In this document: in pieces, positions 2,907 through 36,712 of the stretch
Layout of the letters: each line of letters opens with the position of its first letter
How positions within the stretch are numbered: position 1 is the stretch's first letter
Assembly (NCBI GenBank): GCA_041651115.1
Contig: JBAZJY010000004.1
Location: 78,114 to 142,113 of the forward strand
Direction: 5' to 3'
Length of the DNA stretch: 64,000 bases
Origin: Candidatus Omnitrophota bacterium
GTDB lineage: Bacteria; Omnitrophota; Gorgyraeia; Gygaellales; Profunditerraquicolaceae
Made by a program: the position numbers and the translations under genes
Notes under the pieces: generated by a model
The model's database searches: none
What the model was told of the DNA's origin: nothing
What the model saw: the letters and a program-made list of their open reading frames with translations, nothing else

Positions 2907-4079
2907 ATGAAAAACATTATTGCTAAAAAAGTTAAAGAAATGCAGCCCTCGGGTATCAGGGTCTTTTTTGACCTTGTGCTGGGGATGAAGGACGTAATCT
3001 CTCTTGGCGTGGGTGAGCCAGATTTTGTCACGCCCTGGCAGATACGCGAGGAAGGAATCTATTCCCTGGAGCAGGGTTTTACTTCTTATACTTCCAATAA
3101 AGGGCTGTATAAGTTAAGGCTAAGCATTAGCCGCTTTCTAAAAAATAAATTCGGGCTTGACTATTGCCCGGATGAAGAGGTCCTGATCACTGTAGGTGTC
3201 AGTGAAGGAGTAGACCTGACCTTGCGCGCGATCATTAATCCCGGCGACAAGGTGATTGTGCCTATACCCAGCTATGTATCTTACGGCCCGGTTGCCGAAC
3301 TGGCAGGCGCTAAGGCTGTTTACGTGGATACTGTATCAGACGGTTTCAAGCTTACTCCGGCCAGCCTTGAAAAAAATATTGATAGGCACACGAAGGCGGT
3401 AATCCTGAATTACCCTACAAACCCCACGGGTGTTACCTATACCAGGCGGGAACTGGAAGCATTAAAAAAAGTTATCTTAAAGCATAAGCTGCTTGCTATT
3501 TCCGATGAGGTTTATGGAGATTTGACTTATGATTTTGAGCATACGGCATTTGCTTCGCTTTCCGGGGCAAAAGAAAATACTGTTTATCTTGACGGGTTTT
3601 CCAAGAGCTATGCTATGACCGGCTGGCGTATTGGTTATGCCTGCGGCCCGAAAGAGATCATTGCCGCAATGACGAAGATCCATCAGTATACGATCATGTG
3701 CGTGCCGATCACCAGTCAAATGGCTGCCTGCGAAGCAATTGCTACCGGGAAAAAATCTATTGAAGAGATGAAGCGCGAATATAAAAGGAGAAGGGAATTT
3801 GTTATTTCCCGGCTCAATGAAATGGGGCTTTCCTGCCGTATGCCCGAAGGCGCTTTTTATGCTTTTCCATCAATAAAAAATACCGGTTTAAGCTCAATGG
3901 AATTTTGCCAGAGGCTGCTCAAAGAGCAAAAGGTTGCTGTTGTGCCCGGAACTGCTTTCGGCAAATGCGGCGAAGGCTATATAAGGATTTCCTATGCTTC
4001 AAGCATGGAAAATTTGAAAGAGGCTTTAGAAAGGATTGAGTCATGGTTAAGGCAAAACAAGGTTACGACATCTATGTAA
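2907..4079 (+). CDS. Pyridoxal-phosphate-dependent aminotransferase, class I/II (aspartate/aromatic aminotransferase-like)
   Basis: The 390-aa protein carries the SKSYAMTGWRIGY PLP-lysine motif, the fold-type I ILNYPTNPTG motif and a C-terminal AVVPG..FG motif. Confidence 0.8.
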   Translation: MKNIIAKKVKEMQPSGIRVFFDLVLGMKDVISLGVGEPDFVTPWQIREEGIYSLEQGFTSYTSNKGLYKLRLSISRFLKNKFGLDYCPDEEVLITVGVSEGVDLTLRAIINPGDKVIVPIPSYVSYGPVAELAGAKAVYVDTVSDGFKLTPASLEKNIDRHTKAVILNYPTNPTGVTYTRRELEALKKVILKHKLLAISDEVYGDLTYDFEHTAFASLSGAKENTVYLDGFSKSYAMTGWRIGYACGPKEIIAAMTKIHQYTIMCVPITSQMAACEAIATGKKSIEEMKREYKRRREFVISRLNEMGLSCRMPEGAFYAFPSIKNTGLSSMEFCQRLLKEQKVAVVPGTAFGKCGEGYIRISYASSMENLKEALERIESWLRQNKVTTSM

Positions 4080-4768
4080 AACAGATCGAGGCGCTTTCTA
4101 AAGTCGCTAACCTGATCACTTCCGGGATGTACCTGGAGGAATTACTGCGTTTAATCGTCCACGTTACCGCCGAGATTATGAATTCCAAGATCTCCTCGCT
4201 GATGCTTTTGGACCCGGAAAAGAATGAGCTCGTAGTAAAAGCAACCCAGTCCATCTCCGAAGCCTACAATAAAAAGGCGAATATAAAATTAGGCGTGGGA
4301 ATTGCCGGCATCGCGGCGAAAGAAAATAAACCGATCTGCGTTTTGGACGTTAAAGAGGATGAGCGTTATCTGAACCGGGACATCGCGAAAAAAGAAGGCC
4401 TATATTCGCTGGCAAGCGTGCCTTTGGCTGTAAAGGGCAGGGTCATCGGCGTGCTTAATTGTTATACGTCCAAGAAACATGAATTTACCAAGCATGAACT
4501 GCATCTTCTGGCTGCTTTGGCAAACCAGGCCGCAGTTGCCATTGAGAACGCGGAACTGGATATGCGCGCAAAGAGCGCTGAAGAAGCGCTCCTGACCCGT
4601 AAGCATGTTGAGCGGGCAAAGGATATCCTCGCGCAGGAGGCAGGGATCTCTCCGGAACAAGCATACAGGCTGATCCAAAAGCAAAGTATGGATAGGCGCA
4701 AGTCAATGCGCGAAGTTGCCGAAGCAATCATTCTTGCGCGGGACATACGGCAAAAGCATAGCCCTTGA
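4043..4768 (+). CDS. GAF domain plus ANTAR (RNA-binding antiterminator) domain regulator
   Basis: The N-terminal GAF-like region reads LMLLDPEKNELVVKAT...VPLAVKGRVIGVLNCY. The C-terminal ANTAR motif reads LLTRKHVERAKDILAQEAGISPEQAYRLIQKQSMDRRKSMREVAEAII. The start overlaps the aminotransferase stop by 37 nt, and an alternative start at 4127 is possible. Confidence 0.65.
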   Translation: MVKAKQGYDIYVKQIEALSKVANLITSGMYLEELLRLIVHVTAEIMNSKISSLMLLDPEKNELVVKATQSISEAYNKKANIKLGVGIAGIAAKENKPICVLDVKEDERYLNRDIAKKEGLYSLASVPLAVKGRVIGVLNCYTSKKHEFTKHELHLLAALANQAAVAIENAELDMRAKSAEEALLTRKHVERAKDILAQEAGISPEQAYRLIQKQSMDRRKSMREVAEAIILARDIRQKHSP

Positions 4769-4778
4769 AATTATACCA

Positions 4779-6476
4779 ATGCCGAATAAGCTGCCGGAAA
4801 ATCAATTACGCGTTGCCGTTGCTCAGATCAATTGCACGGTAGGAGACCTCCAAGCCAATGCTGCCAAAGTCAGTGAGTATACCGGCTTTGCCGCTAAGGC
4901 CGGCGCCGACATTGTTTGTTTTCCGGAACTTGCGCTTACCGGGTATCCGCCTGAAGACCTGCTGATCAAACCGCAGTTTATCCGCGACAATCTGTCTAAA
5001 CTTAAAGAATTAGTGCGCCGCAGCAGCGATATTGTTTCCATTATTGGATTTGTGGATAGGCAGGCCGGAGAAATATATAATGCTGCCGCGGTAGTCTATA
5101 AAGGAAAGATCAAGGGAGTCTACCGCAAAGTGCACCTTCCTAATTACAGCGTATTTGACGAAAAACGCTACTTTTACCCGGGGAAAGAGCCGCTGGTCTT
5201 TAAATACGGCAACGCGATATTCGGGGTAAATATCTGCGAAGATATCTGGCACTTTGACGGCCCGCTAAAGGCGCAGGCATCCGCAGGCGCCGGGCTGATC
5301 GTTAATATTAATTCTTCGCCTTATTATGCCGGAAAGATCAGGCAGAGGCAGGAGATTGTCCGCAGGCAGGCACGGGAGAATAAAACAGCGATAGTTTACG
5401 CTAATTTAGTAGGCGGCCAGGATGAACTGGTATTTGACGGCCAGAGTATGATCGTAGACCGCAGCGGAAAAGTAATTGCCATTGCAGAGGCGTTTAAAGA
5501 AGACTTATTGATCGCGGATATCAGCTTGCCGCAGGCCAGGATAAGATCAAAAAAATATTTGTGCGTGGTTTCAGAGAAGATTGCGCCTGCCGATAAGCTT
5601 GCCTTGCCCGCGAGAAAGAAAATTTCCCTGCCCGAAGAAGCCAAAGAAGTATACGAGGCTTTATTGCTTGGGCTAAAGGATTATGTTTTAAAGAACGGTT
5701 TTCGCCAGGTCGTTATTGGGTTAAGCGGAGGCATTGATTCAGCGCTGGTAGCGGCAATTGCCGTGGATGCCTTGGGCAAAGATAATGTTACCGGCGTATT
5801 TATGCCGTCAAGATACTCTTCTGTTGAGTCGCGGGAAGACAGCCGGCAACTGGCAGCTAATCTTGGCGTGAAACTGCTGGATATCCCGATTGAAGATATT
5901 TATAAACTTTATTTAAGCCAGCTTCAGCCACATTTTGCCGGCCTTGAAAGCAATATTGCTGAAGAAAACCTGCAGGCGCGTATCAGGGGTAATATCATTA
6001 TGGCGCTTTCCAATAAATTCGGCTGGCTTGTGCTGGCTACGGGAAACAAGTCGGAGATGAGCACAGGATATGCCACGTTATATGGCGACATGGCCGGAGG
6101 ATTTGCCGTAATAAAAGACGTCCCCAAGACCCTGGTATATAAATTGGCAAAATACAGGAACTCATTGGGTGAGGTTATTCCCGAAAGAAGCATTACAAAA
6201 GAGCCCACCGCGGAATTAAAGTCAAACCAAAAAGACAGCGACAGCCTGCCGGTTTATGAAACTCTGGACCCTATTCTTAAGGCTTACATTGAGCAGGATA
6301 GCGATTTGGCAAAGATAGCTTCTTCGGGGTTTGATAAACAAACGGTATTAAGGGTCGCGAATATGGTGGATAAAAGCGAATACAAACGCCGGCAGTCTCC
6401 GCCGGGTATTAAGATCACGCCAAAGGCATTTGGCAGGGACCGCAGGATGCCGATCACCAACAAATATCGTGGGTAG
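4779..6476 (+). CDS. nadE: Glutamine-dependent NAD+ synthetase (N-terminal CN-hydrolase/nitrilase domain plus C-terminal NAD synthetase domain)
   Basis: The nitrilase-fold N-terminus reads RVAVAQINCTVGD...CFPELALTGY. The PP-loop reads GLSGGIDSA. The protein is about 565 aa. The ATG at 4779 is preferred over the 4716 ORF-track start. Confidence 0.85.
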   Translation: MPNKLPENQLRVAVAQINCTVGDLQANAAKVSEYTGFAAKAGADIVCFPELALTGYPPEDLLIKPQFIRDNLSKLKELVRRSSDIVSIIGFVDRQAGEIYNAAAVVYKGKIKGVYRKVHLPNYSVFDEKRYFYPGKEPLVFKYGNAIFGVNICEDIWHFDGPLKAQASAGAGLIVNINSSPYYAGKIRQRQEIVRRQARENKTAIVYANLVGGQDELVFDGQSMIVDRSGKVIAIAEAFKEDLLIADISLPQARIRSKKYLCVVSEKIAPADKLALPARKKISLPEEAKEVYEALLLGLKDYVLKNGFRQVVIGLSGGIDSALVAAIAVDALGKDNVTGVFMPSRYSSVESREDSRQLAANLGVKLLDIPIEDIYKLYLSQLQPHFAGLESNIAEENLQARIRGNIIMALSNKFGWLVLATGNKSEMSTGYATLYGDMAGGFAVIKDVPKTLVYKLAKYRNSLGEVIPERSITKEPTAELKSNQKDSDSLPVYETLDPILKAYIEQDSDLAKIASSGFDKQTVLRVANMVDKSEYKRRQSPPGIKITPKAFGRDRRMPITNKYRG

Positions 6477-6479
6477 CGG

Positions 6480-6557
6480 TTAGGGACGGTTCTCAGCCAA
6501 GGAGAAAAATGTCCCCGAATGGGGACACTTTTCCCTTGGACTGAGAACCGTCCCTAA
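6480..6557. terminator. Long, nearly perfect nested hairpin (about 78 nt) immediately 3' of nadE
   Basis: GTTAGGGACGGTTCTCAGCCAAGG...CCTTGGACTGAGAACCGTCCCTAA, with an inner GTCCCC-gaat-GGGGAC hairpin. Only a weak U-tract follows. Confidence 0.5.
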
Positions 6558-6563
6558 TCTTTG

Positions 6564-6591
6564 TTGACAAAATCCGGCTTTATGTTATACT
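6564..6591 (+). promoter_or_regulatory. Putative sigma70-type promoter, TTGACA-N16-TATACT
   Basis: The hexamers are a near-consensus match and were read directly. Confidence 0.45.
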
Positions 6592-6626
6592 TTATATAGT
6601 TACAGGGTAGTAAAGAATAAGGACTC

Positions 6627-6674
6627 AGGCGTCCTTTAATCCGATTATGGATTAAGGGGCGCCTATTTTTTTTT
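6627..6674 (+). terminator. Intrinsic-terminator-like hairpin plus a 9-T run located inside the leader, 10 nt before the sigma-factor start codon
   Basis: AGGCGTCC...inner TTAATCC-GATTAT-GGATTAA...GGGGCGCCT followed by TTTTTTTTT. An RBS, GGAGAAAAG, follows it directly. Confidence 0.5.
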
Positions 6675-6683
6675 GGAGAAAAG

Positions 6684-7220
6684 ATGACTTTTGAAGGGTT
6701 AGTAAAAAAAATATCTCCGACGTTAAAAAGGATCACCTATAAGCTTAACGGCCATTTTTCCTTTTTTAACGATGAGGACCTGTTCCAGGAAGCGCTGCTG
6801 CGGCTATGGCTTGATTTTCAGCGCGGCAAGCTGGACGATAAGACCGACAGTTACATACTGCAGGGTTGCTACTTCCACCTTAAGAACTATCTGCGTAAGG
6901 CCCGGGACAAGGCGCGTTTGGTCAGCATAGATACGTTGGTTGCCGAGGAAGGGCTCAACTTAGACGAGATGCTGGCTTCGGACAGGCAGTTGCCGGCTTG
7001 CGATGATCTGGACGAGGAGATGTTGTCTGAAAGGATGGAGAAGCTTGGGCTATCCGGCAGGGAAAAAGACATCCTTTCTTTAAGTATGGAAGGCCTGACA
7101 GTAAGAGAGATCGGCAAGAGGCTGGGGATTTCGCATGTTATGGTAATAAAATTAAAAGCCAAAATAAAGTCCAAGTGCATACGGTTCCGGGAGGAAGTGA
7201 AAAACAGTTACCAAATGTAA
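6684..7220 (+). CDS. RNA polymerase sigma factor, sigma-70/ECF family
   Basis: The region-2-like segment reads DLFQEALLRLWLDF. The region-4 HTH reads LSGREKDILSLSMEGLTVREIGKRLGISHVMV. The protein is 178 aa. Confidence 0.6.
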   Translation: MTFEGLVKKISPTLKRITYKLNGHFSFFNDEDLFQEALLRLWLDFQRGKLDDKTDSYILQGCYFHLKNYLRKARDKARLVSIDTLVAEEGLNLDEMLASDRQLPACDDLDEEMLSERMEKLGLSGREKDILSLSMEGLTVREIGKRLGISHVMVIKLKAKIKSKCIRFREEVKNSYQM

Positions 7221-7286
7221 AATATTTTTACTTGTAGTAATGTAGAAGATATCAGCAACAAACACATTGAAGTGTAAGAAGACACA

Positions 7287-7317
7287 GGCGTTCCAACCAG
7301 GGAACGCCATTTTTTTT
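7287..7317 (+). terminator. Rho-independent terminator after the sigma-factor gene
   Basis: GGCGTTCC-aaccag-GGAACGCC followed by TTTTTTTT. Confidence 0.7.
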
Positions 7318-7418
7318 GTAAGACGCAAGCGTCTTTCGTTGCTCCGTTGATGGAGGCAAGAAAGGCGCTTTTTATTTATACAACCGGTAAGATACACCCG
7401 GCCTTAAAGGAATCGGCC

Positions 7419-7445
7419 GGTATCCCACTCTCTGTGGGAAAGGAG
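7419..7445. promoter_or_regulatory. Conserved dyad element GGTATCCCACTcTCTGTGGGAAaGGAG overlapping the RBS; a second copy lies at 35086-35113
   Basis: A TCCCAC-N5-GTGGGA inverted repeat. 26 of 28 nt are identical to the copy at 35086. Confidence 0.6.
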
Positions 7446-7451
7446 AAAAAG

Positions 7452-8216
7452 ATGTTTAAAAAGATTTGCGGTTTCATGATGGTGTTATTTTTAAGTTTTT
7501 GTTTTATCTCTTTTGTTTATGCTGAAAGCGAAGGCCTGCTTTCCGATATCGGTTTTGAGGTCAGCGGCGATGCTTCGGTATACTCACAGTATATATGGAG
7601 AGGGTTTGTCCTGGACAGGGATGCGGTGATCCAGCCGAGTATCTATGTTTCCACCCCCTCAACAAAATTCGGTAAATTGAAAGTCGGGGTATGGTCAAAT
7701 CAGGACTTGCAGAACAGCGATAACCTTAAATCCGAAGAATTTGACTATATCATAGACTATACCTATGATTTTGACTACTTAAGCGTTTCTCTCGGTCACA
7801 CCTATTATGATTTTGTAGAAACATCTACTTTCAGCAAGGAGTTTTATATCGGGCTGTCGCTGCCGAAGTTATTTTTAAGCCCTTCAGTATATTTTTATCG
7901 TGATTACGGGAGCACGGAAAACGGCGGCGGTTCAGGTAACTACACGGTAATAAACGGATTTTACAGCCTGCCGATTAAAAATACGCCTTTAAGCCTGGAC
8001 TTCTCCGGCCATGTCGGATTTAACCATAATCAGTTTATTGACGGAGACGGCGGTGATGTAGGCCTTAAGGTAGGACTTACCATGCCCCTTACAAAGAACT
8101 TATCTTTTACGCCTAATGTGAATTATTCCATCCCATTCGGTGATCTGGCTGATGAGGCGCACGGCAACCAGAAATCAAGATTTTTCGGCGGCGGAACGCT
8201 GGTATACAAATTCTAA
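7452..8216 (+). CDS. Putative outer-membrane beta-barrel (porin-like) protein with signal peptide, first gene of the amt operon
   Basis: The signal peptide reads MFKKICGFMMVLFLSFCFISFVYA. Amphipathic beta-strands alternate through the sequence. The C-terminus ...LVYKF ends in an aromatic residue. The RBS AGGAG lies 7 nt upstream. The 7347 N-terminal extension in the ORF track was rejected. Confidence 0.5.
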   Translation: MFKKICGFMMVLFLSFCFISFVYAESEGLLSDIGFEVSGDASVYSQYIWRGFVLDRDAVIQPSIYVSTPSTKFGKLKVGVWSNQDLQNSDNLKSEEFDYIIDYTYDFDYLSVSLGHTYYDFVETSTFSKEFYIGLSLPKLFLSPSVYFYRDYGSTENGGGSGNYTVINGFYSLPIKNTPLSLDFSGHVGFNHNQFIDGDGGDVGLKVGLTMPLTKNLSFTPNVNYSIPFGDLADEAHGNQKSRFFGGGTLVYKF

Positions 8217-9958: not shown

Positions 9959-10132
9959 ATGATAGATAAGGAATTGATCGATAAGATCAGGAACCTGAAG
10001 ATAGAGAACAGATATACGTTGTATGATCTGTCCAGGAAGATTGATGTCCAGATCGGCACATTGGAAAGGTGGTTAAAGACTGGCAGGATAAACAGGTTTT
10101 ACGCAAGGGTAGTCAGGGAGAAGTTGGGCATA
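9959..10132 (+). CDS. Small ORF (57 aa) with an XRE-like helix-turn-helix; not in the supplied ORF track because it is shorter than 60 aa
   Basis: I translated it by hand: MIDKELIDKIRNLKIENRYTLYDLSRKIDVQIGTLERWLKTGRINRFYARVVREKLGI. The ...TLYDLSRKIDVQIGTLERWLKTG segment fits the helix2-turn-helix3 pattern of XRE regulators. It lies between glnK-1 and amt-2, and a weak terminator-like hairpin follows at 10143-10172. Confidence 0.25.
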
Positions 10133-10233
10133 TAAAAATAACAGGCATAGGCTGTAATGCCTGGAATTTTTTGGGATATTTTTTTATCAGTTGGCTAAAC
10201 AAGTGTGCAGTTAGCTATGAAAGGAGAGCGGGG

Positions 10234-11463: not shown

Positions 11464-11562
11464 TTAACACCCAAACCAATCGGCACCTTGCCCTAAAGGA
11501 TGGGCAAGTGTCGCTTGCTGCTGGAATGGTTTGGTGCGCGCTTACTGCGCAGGGAGGAACTT

Positions 11563-11904
11563 ATGAAATTGATTATCGCGATCATCCAGCCCTATAAGCT
11601 GGAAGAAGTAAAAGCAGAACTTTATAAGGCAGACGTTAATTTAATCACGGTCAGCGAGGTGCTTGGCCACGGCCGCCAGATGGGGGTTACGGAAATTTAC
11701 CGCGGGGCAAAAGAAACCGGTAACCTTTTAAGAAAAATGCGGCTGGAGATCGCCGTAAACGACAACTTTGTTGCGCCCACAGTCAAGGCGATCATTAAAG
11801 GGGCAAAGACCGGCGAAACCGGAGACGGGAAGATCTTTGTATTGCCGCTGGAAGAGTGCGTGCGCATACGCACGGAAGAAAAAGGATCGTCGGCAATAGG
11901 TTAA
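11563..11904 (+). CDS. glnK: Nitrogen regulatory protein P-II, second copy
   Basis: The protein begins [17 protein letters not shown] and carries GRQMG and GDGKIF. An RBS, AGGGAGG, lies upstream. The ORF-track start at 11500 was rejected. Confidence 0.85.
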
Positions 11905-17247: not shown

Positions 17248-17346
17248 AAAAGGGTTACCAAACCGGGTATTTTTTTACTTGTATATGTAGGTGCATAAAA
17301 TTTAGGCACGCAGCAGTGCTTATTGTTTGAGGGAAGCGAACATTGA

Positions 17347-17391
17347 CGTTCAGGAAGGCCTCCTGTTGGAGGCTGGAATGAACGTTTTTTT
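17347..17391 (+). terminator. Rho-independent terminator after doxX
   Basis: CGTTCA-GGAAGGCCTCC-tgtt-GGAGGCTGG-AATGAACG followed by TTTTTTT. Confidence 0.7.
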
Positions 17392-17466
17392 GTTTATAAA
17401 TGCGGCATTCATAGTATAATAGGTAAAATAGCTCAAAAATATCAAACTATCTATTGGGAGGGATTT

Positions 17467-19659: not shown

Positions 19660-19692
19660 GATAATACAACTTTAGGCGATAAGTCAGGGACA

Positions 19693-19726
19693 AAGACGTC
19701 CTCCGGAAGGGGGACGTCTTTTTTTT
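19693..19726 (+). terminator. Rho-independent terminator after glnN
   Basis: AGACGTCC-tccggaag-GGGACGTCT followed by TTTTTTTT. Confidence 0.75.
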
Positions 19727-19771
19727 GCGGTATCCGGTGATTAGTTTTTGGGCAAAGGATGACTGATTATT

Positions 19772-20047
19772 ATGATTAAGCTGGTGATCACAGAAAACGA
19801 AACCGGGATAAAAGATGTGGTTGTTGAGCTGGAAAAATGCTTGTATGATGAAAAAAAAGGGGTATTATATAAATCCATTTTAGAATTAGTGGAAAAACCG
19901 ATCATTGAGCGCGTGCTTGAGCGCACGGAGGGAAATCAGCTTAAGGCAGCCAGGATCTTAGGCATTAATCGCAATACTATGCGGACAAAAATCAAGAAAC
20001 TGGGGATTGACCCTGAAGTATATAAATTCCGTGGACACAATACTTAA
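19772..20047 (+). CDS. Stand-alone Fis-type (HTH_8, NtrC C-terminal-like) DNA-binding mini-protein
   Basis: The C-terminal GNQLKAARILGINRNTMRTKIKKLGI is a classic Fis/NtrC HTH. The protein is 91 aa and sits directly upstream of gltB. Confidence 0.55.
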   Translation: MIKLVITENETGIKDVVVELEKCLYDEKKGVLYKSILELVEKPIIERVLERTEGNQLKAARILGINRNTMRTKIKKLGIDPEVYKFRGHNT

Positions 20048-34869: not shown

Positions 34870-34977
34870 AGCGCCGCCCGGAAAGATGTAAATTTATCTT
34901 GACAGAGCCGTCATTTAATTATATTTTATTAAACAGGCTTCAAAATACTTAAACAACATAAGTTAGTCAAGGACAAA

Positions 34978-35010
34978 GGCGTCCCAAACTAGGCGGGATG
35001 CCTTTTTTTA
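34978..35010 (+). terminator. Rho-independent terminator after the nfnAB-like pair
   Basis: AGGCGTCCC-aaactagg-CGGGATGCCT followed by TTTTTTTA. Confidence 0.7.
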
Positions 35011-35085
35011 TTTGGGTAAGTGTGATTAAAAAACGGGCAAAAGCTGCCTAATCTTTAACAAATACCCAATTCAATAGGTTGAATT

Positions 35086-35113
35086 GGTATCCCACTTTCT
35101 GTGGGAAGGGAGG
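35086..35113. promoter_or_regulatory. Second copy of the conserved dyad element, GGTATCCCACTtTCTGTGGGAAgGGAGG, overlapping the RBS
   Basis: Identical to 7419-7445 apart from 2 nt. An extra 9-bp inverted repeat, CCAATTCAA-taggt-TTGAATTGG, lies just upstream at 35065-35087. Confidence 0.6.
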
Positions 35114-35119
35114 AATGCT

Positions 35120-36712
35120 ATGAATTTGCGTACACCCGGCGGCAACGACGCAACGCGTACGTTCAACCGCTCGAAAAACGTAGTTCCTTGTTCAGGCTTG
35201 TGTTCCAGGTGTCTGGAGTCTTGCCGGGGTAACTGCGAAGTTTTTAAATCTTCATTCCGCGGCAGGGAAGTGATCTATCCCGGGCCGTTCGGCGAAATGA
35301 CAGCCGGAGGCGATAAGGATTATCCGGTTGATTATTCACATTTGAATATCCAGGGATATGCCCAGGGCGCTAAAGGCCTGCCAAAGGGCACAGAGGCGGG
35401 CCCGGATTCTGCGACTTTCCCATCGGTAAACACCGAAACAGAATATGGCTGGGATAAGAAGGTCAAAATGAAAGCCCCGATTTTTACCGGCGCGCTCGGC
35501 TCAACCGAGATCGCCCGTAAGAATTGGGAGCATTTTGCCATAGGCGCTGCCATTTCAGGCGTGACCATTGTCTGCGGGGAGAATGTATGCGGCATTGATC
35601 CTAAGCTTGAGTTAGACAGCAAGGGAAAGATCACCAATGCCCCGGATATGGATCGCCGTATCGAAGTATATAAGCGTTTCCATGACGGTTACGGCGAGAT
35701 CCTCGTGCAAATGAACGTTGAGGATACGCGCCTGGGGGTTGCCGAATACGTGCGTAAAAAACATAAACTGGAAACCATTGAGTTAAAATGGGGCCAGGGC
35801 GCAAAATGTATCGGCGGTGAGATCAAGGTAAAAAGCCTGGAAAGGGCGATTGAGCTGAAAAAACGCGGCTATATCGTTACTCCTGATCCGACTGTGCATG
35901 CTAATAAAGAAGCGTTTAAAGCAGGCGCGATCAAAGAATTTGAACGCCATTCCCGCTTAGGGTTTGTCTCCGAAGAAGGCTTTATGAAGGAGATCAAGCG
36001 CTTAAGGGATCTTGGTTTTAAACGGATCACCTTGAAGACCGGCGCATATTCCATGGTGGAACTTGCCCAGGCCTTGAAGTTTTCCTCGATGGCCAAGATT
36101 GACCTTTTAACCATTGACGGCGCTCCCGGCGGCACAGGGATGAGTCCATGGAGAATGATGCAGGAATGGGGTACGCCTACGTTTTATTTGCAGGCGCTGA
36201 CCTATGAGTTTTGCGAAAAATTAGCCAAGAAAAAAATGCGCATCCCGGATATTGCCATTGCCGGCGGGTTCTCATTGGAAGATCATATCTTCAAGGTGAT
36301 CGCCATGGGCGCTCCTTATGTCAAAGCAGTGTGTATGGGCCGCGCGTTGATGATCCCGGGCTTTGTCGGCAAGAACATCGGAGAATGGATCAAGTCAAAT
36401 ACTCTGCCTCCGACAGTTTCCGAATTCGGGGTCAAGCCGGAAGAGATCTTTGTTTGCTACGAAGAGCTGGCCGAAAAATACGGGGAAGACATGAAAGATA
36501 TCCCCTTGGGCGCGGTGGGTATCTATACCTTCTCGCAGCGGATCAAAGTCGGCTTGCAGCAATTGATGGCGGGTTCGCGTAATTTTAACCTGTCCACGAT
36601 TTCCCGTAAGGACCTGATGAGCCTGACAAAGGAAGCGGAAGAGGTTTCCGGCATTCCTTATGTGATGGATGCTTATCGCAAAGAAGCGGAGAAGATCTTA
36701 GGCGGTAAGTAA
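35120..36712 (+). CDS. Stand-alone glutamate-synthase domain-2-like FMN-dependent oxidoreductase with an N-terminal Cys-rich motif
   Basis: CSGLCSRCLESCRGNC is a 4-Cys cluster. The GltS FMN-domain pattern is TGALGSTEIARKNWEHFAIGAAISGVTIVCGENV, paralleling GAMSFGSIS...TGEGG of gltB. The protein is about 530 aa. Confidence 0.7.
   Translation: MNLRTPGGNDATRTFNRSKNVVPCSGLCSRCLESCRGNCEVFKSSFRGREVIYPGPFGEMTAGGDKDYPVDYSHLNIQGYAQGAKGLPKGTEAGPDSATFPSVNTETEYGWDKKVKMKAPIFTGALGSTEIARKNWEHFAIGAAISGVTIVCGENVCGIDPKLELDSKGKITNAPDMDRRIEVYKRFHDGYGEILVQMNVEDTRLGVAEYVRKKHKLETIELKWGQGAKCIGGEIKVKSLERAIELKKRGYIVTPDPTVHANKEAFKAGAIKEFERHSRLGFVSEEGFMKEIKRLRDLGFKRITLKTGAYSMVELAQALKFSSMAKIDLLTIDGAPGGTGMSPWRMMQEWGTPTFYLQALTYEFCEKLAKKKMRIPDIAIAGGFSLEDHIFKVIAMGAPYVKAVCMGRALMIPGFVGKNIGEWIKSNTLPPTVSEFGVKPEEIFVCYEELAEKYGEDMKDIPLGAVGIYTFSQRIKVGLQQLMAGSRNFNLSTISRKDLMSLTKEAEEVSGIPYVMDAYRKEAEKILGGK

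Follow-up and report, generated by a model that had tools for sequence, protein, structure and literature searches.

A conserved hairpin module at the starts of nitrogen-assimilation cistrons in uncultured Omnitrophota, best read as a structured mRNA-leader element

The known glutamine riboswitches come from cyanobacteria and marine metagenomes, and the glnA RNA among them stands before genes of the amt, P-II, glutamine synthetase (GS) and gltS-like type. At the DNA level, NtrC sites show a dyad geometry of two 6-nt half-sites spaced by 5 nt (6-N5-6). The RNA substrates of ANTAR proteins are hairpins whose hexaloops carry A1 and G4 and which compete with a terminator (PMC3369931). The Omnitrophota are uncultured and widespread, and their gene regulation is essentially unknown; our search of the literature on Omnitrophota nitrogen regulation and on the motif described below found nothing relevant. 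Here we analysed a 64,000-nt stretch of contig JBAZJY010000004.1 (positions 78,114 to 142,113; assembly GCA_041651115.1) from a Candidatus Omnitrophota bacterium, called the window throughout, in which a 27-nt dyad element recurs in the leader of a porin-amt-glnK-amt-glnK operon and in that of a gene for a GltS-like protein. Coordinates refer to the window unless a label such as L036 marks a locus from another genome or metagenome. The element is best read as a structured mRNA-leader element, undescribed within that broad class, and it is probably not a DNA operator.

The 27-mer GGTATCCCACT(C/T)TCTGTGGGAA(A/G)GGAG occurs twice on the + strand, at 7419-7445 and 35086-35112. When up to three mismatches were allowed, exactly two matches were obtained in the window against 0.00 in 100 dinucleotide-preserving shuffles, which upholds an earlier claim, made in a reading of the letters alone (the sequence-only reading), that the repeat lies beyond chance expectation. 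The copies are indeed near-identical, but the identity given there, 26 of 28 positions, has to be corrected to 25 of 27 (25 of 28 with one base added), the two differences falling at loop position 2 (C/T) and at the base preceding GGAG (A/G). The rest of that description of the sites was borne out: the core TCCCAC-N5-GTGGGA is a perfect inverted repeat in both copies, and each 27-mer merges at its 3' end with a Shine-Dalgarno (SD) sequence (AAGGAG in the amt leader, GGGAGG in the gltS-like leader), ending 6 nt before ATG 7452 and 7 nt before ATG 35120. The downstream genes are also as proposed, with Pfam assigning a Gcw_chp-like porin, Amt, P-II, Amt and P-II after 7452 and a partial Glu_synthase FMN domain to the 530-aa product of the gene at 35120, whose homologues are named Candidatus Omnitrophota. 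Outside the 27-mer, alignment of the amt and gltS-like leaders revealed similarity only in an upstream hairpin/terminator. A third, degenerate copy, absent from the list of the sequence-only reading, was found at 11484-11529 (20.3 bits with a covariance model built from the instances), and the entire amt2-glnK2 spacer around it (11466-11562) is homologous to the elements of L036 and L034.

Comparison of the copies suggests that the dyad is an RNA hairpin, P2, within a larger predicted structure (Table 1). The consensus of P2 is UCCCRC-UYUCU-GYGGGA, flanked by UR and A, the 20-mer being UAUCCCACUYUCUGUGGGAA, with a folding energy of -10 kcal/mol for P2 alone. Each of the five strong Omnitrophota copies (amt, gltS-like, L036, L034 and L041) has a Watson-Crick helix of 5-9 bp, P1, ending at the base just before the 20-mer; shuffle p values for P1 are given in Table 1 for the amt and gltS-like copies and were 0.0014, 0.0046 and 0.13 among the other three. 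The P1 sequences of three copies are unrelated to one another, namely CCGGCC/GGCCGG (amt), CCAAUUCAA/UUGAAUUGG (gltS-like) and CCCGCGC/GCGCGGG (L041), and those of L036 (CUUACCCA/UGGGUAAG), L034 (CUUGC/GCAAG) and the copy before glnK2 (CUUGCCC/GGGCAAG) are related and differ by compensatory changes. In an RNAalifold consensus of the three full-length copies P1 runs into the 'URU' of the 20-mer, G-Y-A-C pairing with G-U-R-U around a bulged C, and the Y/R pair covaries between 'GGYAC' and 'GURU', being U-A in L036 and L034 and C-G in the glnK2 copy (by inspection, also C-G in L041). P1 and P2 therefore abut, and in the modelled fold they probably stack. P2 itself carries a compensatory change from A-U to G-C in L041:3156-3175, with the loop kept, and the glnK2 copy also has G-C at this position of the stem; the loop is UYUCU in the five strong copies and UUGCU in the degenerate one.

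In L036, L034 and the glnK2 copy a further helix, P0, closes a three-way junction around P1-P2, with AUCG in J0/1 and AAU in J2/0. Two pairs of the L036 P0 are G.U, equivalent to C.A mismatches on the opposite strand, and P0 therefore exists on the sense strand only. Fold z-scores were -3.8 for L036 and -3.2 for L034. The fuller copies then show a small hairpin, P3, followed by the SD; its loop contains UUAC and its stems covary (UGCGC/GCGCA, UGUG/CACA, UUGC/GCAA and UGU/ACA). In the amt and gltS-like copies the SD comes directly after P2, without P0 or P3. Among the Omnitrophota copies 98% of cells pair and five pairs show two-sided changes, as against at most 52% in slid controls, in counts for which loops were trimmed, the Streptococcus-derived L032 was excluded and the P1 arms were chosen by ourselves. 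The covariance model gave 35-49 bits to true copies, 20 to the degenerate copy and 10-15 to chance stems. As a separate observation, the short string AUCGG(A/U) turns up repeatedly and unpaired, either in J0/1 or in a hairpin loop of the module, at L036:11414-11418, L041:3140-3144, L042:~8913 and twice in L034; L034 has it, for example, as a hexaloop (AUCGGA), and L042 in its P0 loop (UUAUCGGAUA). AUCGG is also present at 11479-11483 and 7412-7416 of the window, and the gltS-like copy is without it.

All six copies share the orientation of the flanking genes, and those in L036, L041 and at 11468 of the window are intercistronic and without a predicted promoter. The sequence-only reading had offered two mechanisms, an operator for a dimeric helix-turn-helix (HTH) protein and an RNA hairpin; the covarying flanking helices, the compensatory change in P2, the constant strand and the presence of copies between cistrons favour the RNA hairpin over the operator. 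The particular hairpin envisaged there, one that sequesters the ribosome-binding site (RBS), does not agree with the predicted structures, in which the SD lies 3' of the stem and is mostly unpaired (mean probability of being unpaired 0.9, 0.57 and 0.73). When the 5' arm of P2 was blocked in silico, the loop (UCUCU or UUUCU) paired with the GGAG of the SD, a conceivable switch.

P2 is nearly invariant, loop included, and P1 is free to vary, which points to P2 as the docking site of a sequence-specific factor; the 20-nt block, again with its loop, is identical between genomes whose GltD proteins are only 67% identical. In the window P2 directly adjoins the SDs of porin-amt1 and the gltS-like gene, and a single hairpin, P3, lies between it and the SD of glnK2. 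We put at about even the chance that the dyad is hairpin P2 of a sense-transcribed RNA module and would serve as the docking site of a sequence-specific trans-acting factor; transcription of the element, the existence of the factor and its effect on translation are what we infer from these patterns. The module lies in leaders and in spacers between cistrons, close upstream of the starts and mostly within the Omnitrophota nitrogen-assimilation cluster (porin-amt, glnK, GS, the gltS-like gene and the gene after gltD), and there P2, displayed on the P1/P2 stack, would dock the factor, most likely a protein. Bound beside the RBS, this factor would alter 30S access or the processing or stability of the mRNA, and the module would then form a second, post-transcriptional layer after ANTAR antitermination in the window.

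Table 1. Predicted features of the three module-bearing leaders in the window
Feature	Position	Strand	Remarks
ANTAR-type attenuator, amt leader	7262-7317	+	hairpin ACAC-AUUGAA-GUGU, then GAC-ACAGGC-GUU overlapping terminator 7287-7308, U8; z = -3.9
Second long hairpin then UUUUUAUUUAU, amt leader	7321-7376	+	between attenuator and P1-P2
P1 hairpin, amt-leader copy: CCGGCC / 11-nt loop / GGCCGG	7398-7420	+	6-bp helix abutting the 20-mer; shuffle p = 0.03
Conserved 20-mer UAUCCCACUCUCUGUGGGAA, amt leader	7421-7440	+	P2 stem 7423-7428 / 7434-7439, loop UCUCU 7429-7433; 47.6 bits (covariance model)
SD AAGGAG (7440-7445) and ATG 7452, porin-amt-glnK-amt-glnK operon	7440-7454	+	SD predicted unpaired
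Full but degenerate module, amt2-glnK2 spacer	11468-11557	+	full-length homology to L036 11399-11499 and L034
glnK2 copy, P0 5' strand CACCCAAACCA	11468-11478	+	
glnK2 copy, junction J AUCGGCAC	11479-11486	+	
glnK2 copy, P1 CUUGCCC / GGGCAAG	11487-11493 / 11502-11508	+	
glnK2 copy, UGU and degenerate P2	11509-11525	+	
glnK2 copy, P0 3' strand GGUUUGGUG	11528-11536	+	
glnK2 copy, P3 hairpin; SD GGGAGG; glnK2 ATG	11537-11551; 11552-11557; 11563	+	
Attenuator, gltS-like leader	34971-35009	+	GGAC-AAAGGC-GUCC overlapping terminator AAAGGCGUCCC...GGGAUGCCUUU, U-run; z = -3.8
P1 hairpin, gltS-like copy: CCAAUUCAA / UAGG / UUGAAUUGG	35066-35087	+	9-bp helix abutting the 20-mer; shuffle p = 0.0008
Conserved 20-mer UAUCCCACUUUCUGUGGGAA, gltS-like leader	35088-35107	+	P2 stem 35090-35095 / 35101-35106, loop UUUCU; 48.3 bits
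SD GGGAGG (35108-35113) and ATG 35120, 530-aa GltS-FMN-domain protein	35108-35122	+	same start by gene caller

Copies in other genomes came from several sources. The locus L036 has the order porin-amt-P-II-GSIII-HTH_8-gltB-gltD, with the 67% identical GltD mentioned above, and carries its element in the spacer that separates gltD from a PPDK_N-pyrG-carA-carB-GATase block, ~41 nt from the ATG; the gltD-PPDK_N spacer is ~100 nt long with the element in L036, and 14-58 nt without P1-P2 in L041, L042 and L044. In L041 a variant, UGUCCCGCUUUCUGCGGGAA (core TCCCGC-N5-GCGGGA), lies between glnB and GSIII. L042 has P0 and P3 without P1-P2, so that P1-P2 behaves as an insertable module. In L034 the element precedes an RF-1-domain (ArfB-like) gene, at ~42 nt from its first in-frame ATG and ~76 nt from an alternative ATG ATG start, which has the better SD. 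On the minus strand of L034, at ~1025-1072, we also noticed another P1-P2-like unit, which has diverged and precedes the main copy by ~100 nt, reading CAC(C)UUGCC-UUAUCGGA-UGGCAAGUG and then GUCCCC-UCCU-GGGGCG, inside a lysine-rich open reading frame (ORF) of 67 aa that may not be a gene.

Database scans yielded both real and chance matches. The pattern TCCCACNNNNNGTGGGAANGGAG (stem plus SD), run against GTDB with one genome per species, gave 23 matches where we estimated ~17 to be expected; none has the shared loop or flanks, all score 10-15 bits, and we consider them chance. An exact scan of JGI metagenomes for the 20-mer (TATCCCACTNTCTGTGGGAA) gave four matches, among which L034 and L035 (same contig family as L036) are real, with further flanking sequence in common. 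The match in L033 is inside a coding region, without P1, and was set down to chance. L032 was rejected as a member: it is the end of a dispersed Streptococcus repeat whose other copies stop at ...CCCACTCTC, without the 3' arm. That repeat (L032 740-960, and L050 from Streptococcus sp. FDAARGOS_192, S. salivarius) is a ~180-nt hairpin-rich intergenic element of oral streptococci ending in ...GAUUUCURUCCCACUCUC, and the flank of one metagenome copy completes the 20-mer coincidentally. A scan of IMG/VR with a degenerate P2 returned no matches.

Five of the six copies adjoin nitrogen-cluster genes. All three in the window precede amt, glnK or gltS-like cistrons, nitrogen genes making up about a quarter of its ~55 genes by our rough count, and two of the three found elsewhere (L036 and L041) are inside amt-glnB-GS-gltBD clusters. 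Most of the related loci were fetched through nitrogen proteins, so this enrichment is partly one of ascertainment; the unbiased motif scan gave two matches, one in a nitrogen cluster and one not. Being non-random, intergenic and of fixed orientation, the element retains its standing as a candidate nitrogen-regulon cis element, and the sequence-only reading was in this sense partly right: what it had found is associated with the nitrogen regulon, probably as RNA rather than as an operator. A bolder proposal, which we hold tentatively and think rather unlikely, is that P1-P2 (with P0 and P3) represents an undescribed nitrogen-status-responsive RNA class specific to Omnitrophota, either a metabolite riboswitch or the RNA half of a protein-RNA translational control, through which amt, glnK, GS and GOGAT-type genes would pass a second control point once GAF-ANTAR antitermination has taken place.

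Several observations, besides our own choice of P1 arms in the pair counts, weigh against P2 as the docking site of a regulator. The dyad was not found in the leaders of GltS-like genes of relatives with 84-93% protein identity, and it is thus not a conserved feature of these genes. The sites of the element differ between genomes, a pattern expected of a small mobile or dispensable element too, and the L034 copy precedes the RF-1-domain gene and not a nitrogen gene. There are only six instances, several of them related by descent, which leaves the covariation statistics thin, and a dimeric DNA-binding protein that co-evolves with its site would likewise account for the symmetric half-site change in L041. 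Finally, P2 lies anywhere between 13 and ~105 nt from the start codon (40-105 nt in three copies), so that direct occlusion of the RBS cannot be the universal mechanism.

A different type of element lies ~100-130 nt upstream of the dyad in both the amt and the gltS-like leader, namely a hairpin GGAC-A.AGGC-GUYC with A1 and G4 in its hexaloop, the 3' half of which is the 5' arm of a strong intrinsic terminator (7287-7308 with U8, and ~34975-35005 with a U-run). Units of this kind, of the form GGAC-(A/U)NAG(G/A)C-GUYC with G4 and usually A1 in the hexaloop and overlapping a strong intrinsic terminator, are present in five window leaders (6616-6673, 7262-7317, 17338-17397, 19686-19728 and 34971-35009), which belong to the LuxR-like ORF 6684, porin-amt, GS type III 17467, HTH_8/gltB 19772/20077 and the gltS-like gene, and they recur in the Omnitrophota relatives L027, L029, L036:450-560, L041:1330-1440 and L047. 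The first hairpin of the attenuator pair is not always a clean hexaloop. Judged by the published definition of ANTAR substrates, these hairpins are likely targets of the GAF-ANTAR protein encoded at 4043-4768, and the five leaders look like an extensive ANTAR antitermination regulon. The dyad is an element distinct from, and downstream of, these attenuators. None of the trans-acting factors proposed by the sequence-only reading is implicated in binding it, the GAF-ANTAR protein having its expected targets in the separate upstream hairpins.

In order of our confidence, the rival explanations are a passive hairpin, a riboswitch, a DNA operator, a mobile repeat and a non-canonical ANTAR site. If P1-P2 (and P3) were a passive stabiliser or insulator, it would shield the RBS from upstream sequence, or the mRNA from 5'-end-dependent decay after processing, with no regulator or signal involved. 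Stable hairpins do abut the SD in every copy with the SD itself unpaired, copies stand at the cistron boundaries of very long operons, and relatives have unrelated hairpins at the same boundaries (for example CGUCCCGAUC...GAUCGGGACG in L047); we nevertheless find this explanation unlikely, as it leaves unaccounted for a 20-nt block that is identical, loop and all, at 67% GltD identity while P1 drifts. The P0/P1/P2 three-way junction might instead serve as an aptamer, binding a metabolite that reports nitrogen status (glutamine, for instance) and controlling translation in analogy to the cyanobacterial glutamine riboswitch. The gene context of amt, P-II, GS and gltS-like genes is that of the glnA-RNA riboswitches, the full-length copies form a closed junction with conserved AUCG and AAU, and RNAfold closes the junctions of the short copies through the SD (gltS-like, UCUUU/GAGGA) or through the spacer plus AUG (amt, CUUUUU/AAAAAG). 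However, the two strongest copies have neither P0 nor the conserved J0/1, so that the shared core shrinks to a 6-bp hairpin with a 5-nt loop, the full-length copies are without an obvious expression platform, and no Rfam riboswitch model matches even at E <= 10, all of which makes a riboswitch quite improbable. The families of Rfam 15 (including glnA RNA, Downstream-peptide, PyrR site, preQ1 and guanidine-II/III) gave no matches at the gathering threshold in the window, L032, L034 or L035, and at E <= 10 there were none in L034:700-1250 and three chance-level matches elsewhere in window 7200-7470.

An operator would have TCCCAC-N5-GTGGGA bound, as a roadblock or repressor, by a dimeric HTH protein encoded nearby, be it Lrp (2414-2899), the LuxR-like protein (6684-7220), the 58-aa XRE-like ORF (9959-10135) or the Fis-type HTH_8 protein (19772-20047). 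It has in its favour palindromic half-sites at fixed spacing in a perfect 6-N5-6 dyad, the geometry of NtrC sites, as well as the joint change of both half-sites in L041 (TCCCGC-N5-GCGGGA) and the conservation of a small HTH_8 gene in the cluster. Instead of adjoining a promoter in either orientation, however, the dyad lies ~190 nt downstream of the only predicted promoter (34899-34927, gltS-like leader) and past one or two terminators, or, in three copies, between cistrons, always in the same orientation; its 'spacer' UYUCU is conserved as much as the half-sites, and an abutting P1, a P0 with G.U pairs and a covarying P3 would be meaningless for duplex DNA. We therefore regard it as very unlikely. 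There is a slight chance that the element is a small dispersed or mobile repeat, such as a repetitive extragenic palindrome (REP), a miniature inverted-repeat transposable element (MITE) or a BOX-like repeat, which landed in spacers by chance and has no regulatory role. The insertion polymorphism of the gltD-PPDK_N spacer and the orthologous gltS-like leaders without the element would fit, and the unrelated streptococcal repeat illustrates how hairpin-rich elements behave; yet the many copies, both orientations and lack of gene bias typical of REP, bacterial interspersed mosaic elements or MITE were not seen in the 64 kb plus ~140 kb of relatives' loci. Three copies were counted in the window, one in L041 and none in those ~140 kb (L025-L031, L042, L044, L047), and all copies are sense, intergenic and 5' of start codons, which speaks against the REP element that the sequence-only reading named as a possible refutation; the patchy distribution over sites still lends a mobile repeat a little weight. 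Nor were terminal repeats or target duplications apparent, the amt/gltS-like similarity ending at the 27-mer, and P1 is wholly different between copies, which is not expected of one transposing element. Least credible to us is a non-canonical ANTAR target, in which the GAF-ANTAR protein would bind P1-P2 at the RBS and repress translation. Two tandem stem-loops with a short linker are present, P1 and P2 abutting in all copies, the arrangement beside or overlapping the RBS recalls mycobacterial cases (bioRxiv 10.1101/660928), an ANTAR gene is in the cluster, and some P1 loops resemble A1/G4 hexaloops (AUAGGU in gltS, AUCGGA in the inner hairpin of L034). The invariant loop of P2 in the strong copies is, by contrast, a 5-nt pyrimidine loop (UCUCU or UUUCU) with neither A1 nor G4 and not the hexaloop of ANTAR substrates (PMC3369931), the P1 loops measure 4, 6-8, 11 or >50 nt with no common A1/G4, and P2 is not exclusive with a terminator, a property seen in the canonical-looking hairpin/terminator units that already occupy the same leaders upstream (7281-7317 and 34971-35009).

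Further identities for the element were considered and dropped. It is not an intrinsic terminator, P2 being followed by AAAGGAG, AGGGAGG or AAUGG and by no U-tract, and the terminator scan did not report it. A sigma-54 promoter (TGGTAT-N5-TTTC) was rejected on inspection: the sequence has no -12 GC, and a transcript beginning ~12 nt downstream would be without the SD. An H-type pseudoknot between the P2 loop and the SD would require 2-3 nt to span a 6-bp stem, which we judged geometrically untenable. An antisense similarity to the PyrR site (CCACAGAGAGUGG) was dismissed, since it involves the wrong strand, is confined to one copy and has no Rfam match. Mimicry of the tRNA-Glu anticodon arm (a 7-nt loop CU(C/U)UCUG with anticodon CUC or UUC) is only an idea, in which position 37 would be a pyrimidine; no tRNA-Glu genes were found in the window or the related loci.

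The module-bearing leaders also bear on gene annotation. An in-frame TTG at 35084 would extend the GltS-like ORF through the dyad, and many database homologues (for example P0015, P0020, P0031 and P0042) have 546-551 aa instead of 530; their starts are probably mis-called through the leader, 16-21 residues too long. For glnK2 the gene caller places the true start at ATG 11563 (113 aa, SD GGGAGG), and the 134-aa ORF listed for the second P-II begins inside the leader RNA (window 11500-11565). The start of amt2 is called at ~10234 (409 aa) and not at GTG 10069; between glnK1 and amt2 lies the 58-aa XRE-like HTH ORF (9959-10135), followed by a terminator-like hairpin (10142-10175).

Other elements were noticed around these leaders and in the relatives. 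The long hairpin at 7321-7376 has the form GCGUCUUUC...GAAAGGCGC with an inner stem, with AAGACGC-AA-GCGUCUU as an alternative small hairpin, and is possibly another terminator in tandem. The string TTTTTACTTGTA(N2-4)TGTAG is common to the promoter regions of amt and GSIII (7225-7245 and 17272-17290), and TTACTTATGTA...GTAG-like strings precede the porin and GS leaders in L047 (~855-875 and 3560-3585); the shared string is possibly a promoter or operator through which nitrogen regulation acts on the DNA. At 6484-6555, after nadE and before a promoter at 6564, a long inverted repeat GGGACGGUUCUCAGCCAAGG...CCUUGGACUGAGAACCGUCCC surrounds a small hairpin. In the relatives (L036 11431-21371; L041, L042, L044 and L047; L025, L029 and L031) gltD is followed by a ~860-aa PPDK_N-domain protein and often by pyrG, carA, carB and GATase, and the GltS-like gene often precedes pyrG-carAB; these arrangements form a large glutamine-producing and glutamine-consuming super-operon. 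L047 has a different conserved intercistronic hairpin, CGUCCCGAUC-N3-GAUCKGGACG, at its GS/HTH_8 and gltD/PPDK_N boundaries (5195-5225 and 11470-11500).

If the docking-site proposal is true, the nitrogen-assimilation genes of Omnitrophota would be under two stacked RNA controls, ANTAR-type attenuators and then a conserved hairpin module at the RBS. Being short and sharply defined, and without a counterpart in Rfam, this module is an easy target for a phylum-wide survey and for cultivation-free work in vitro, and it could yield a new nitrogen-sensing RNA or an RNA-binding regulator. Should it be merely a stabilising hairpin, it would still be a useful annotation marker of true start codons.

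Placing the module among known systems brings out likenesses to several of them. With NtrC/Fis-type 6-N5-6 operators it shares the dyad geometry, the nitrogen regulon and a small HTH_8 protein encoded nearby, but differs in its position past terminators or between cistrons, its constant strand, its conserved spacer and its covarying RNA helices. Stabiliser and intercistronic hairpins (the ompA, aprE and ermC leaders, REP stabilisers) are likewise stable stem-loops at the 5' edge of cistrons in long operons with the SD left free, although they are not normally conserved in sequence across distant genomes. The glutamine riboswitches (glnA RNA, RF01739; Downstream-peptide, RF01704) are also small three-helix RNAs in the leaders of amt, P-II, GS and GOGAT-type genes and presumably act on translation; in contrast to them, the Omnitrophota module has no covariance-model match at the thresholds tried, has other conserved nucleotides, comes from another phylum and in its two best copies is without a junction. 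The dual-hairpin RNAs recognised by ANTAR proteins (EutV, NasR and AmiR, and the mycobacterial Rv1626 targets overlapping the RBS) are similarly tandem leader hairpins on the sense strand, sometimes beside the RBS, and they occur in the same operons and in a like nitrogen or metabolic regulon, with an ANTAR protein in the cluster; the module departs from them in its conserved UYUCU loop in place of an A1/G4 hexaloop, in showing no overlap with a terminator, and in conserving the sequence of the stem, whereas in ANTAR targets the loops are conserved. In comparison with SD-adjacent protein-binding operators (E. coli thrS, ribosomal-protein leaders, the PyrR/TRAP type), the factor is here only inferred and three copies lie 40-105 nt from the start codon, but the module agrees with these operators in having a conserved hairpin 5' of the SD, a variable neighbouring helix and a distribution over several transcripts of one regulon.

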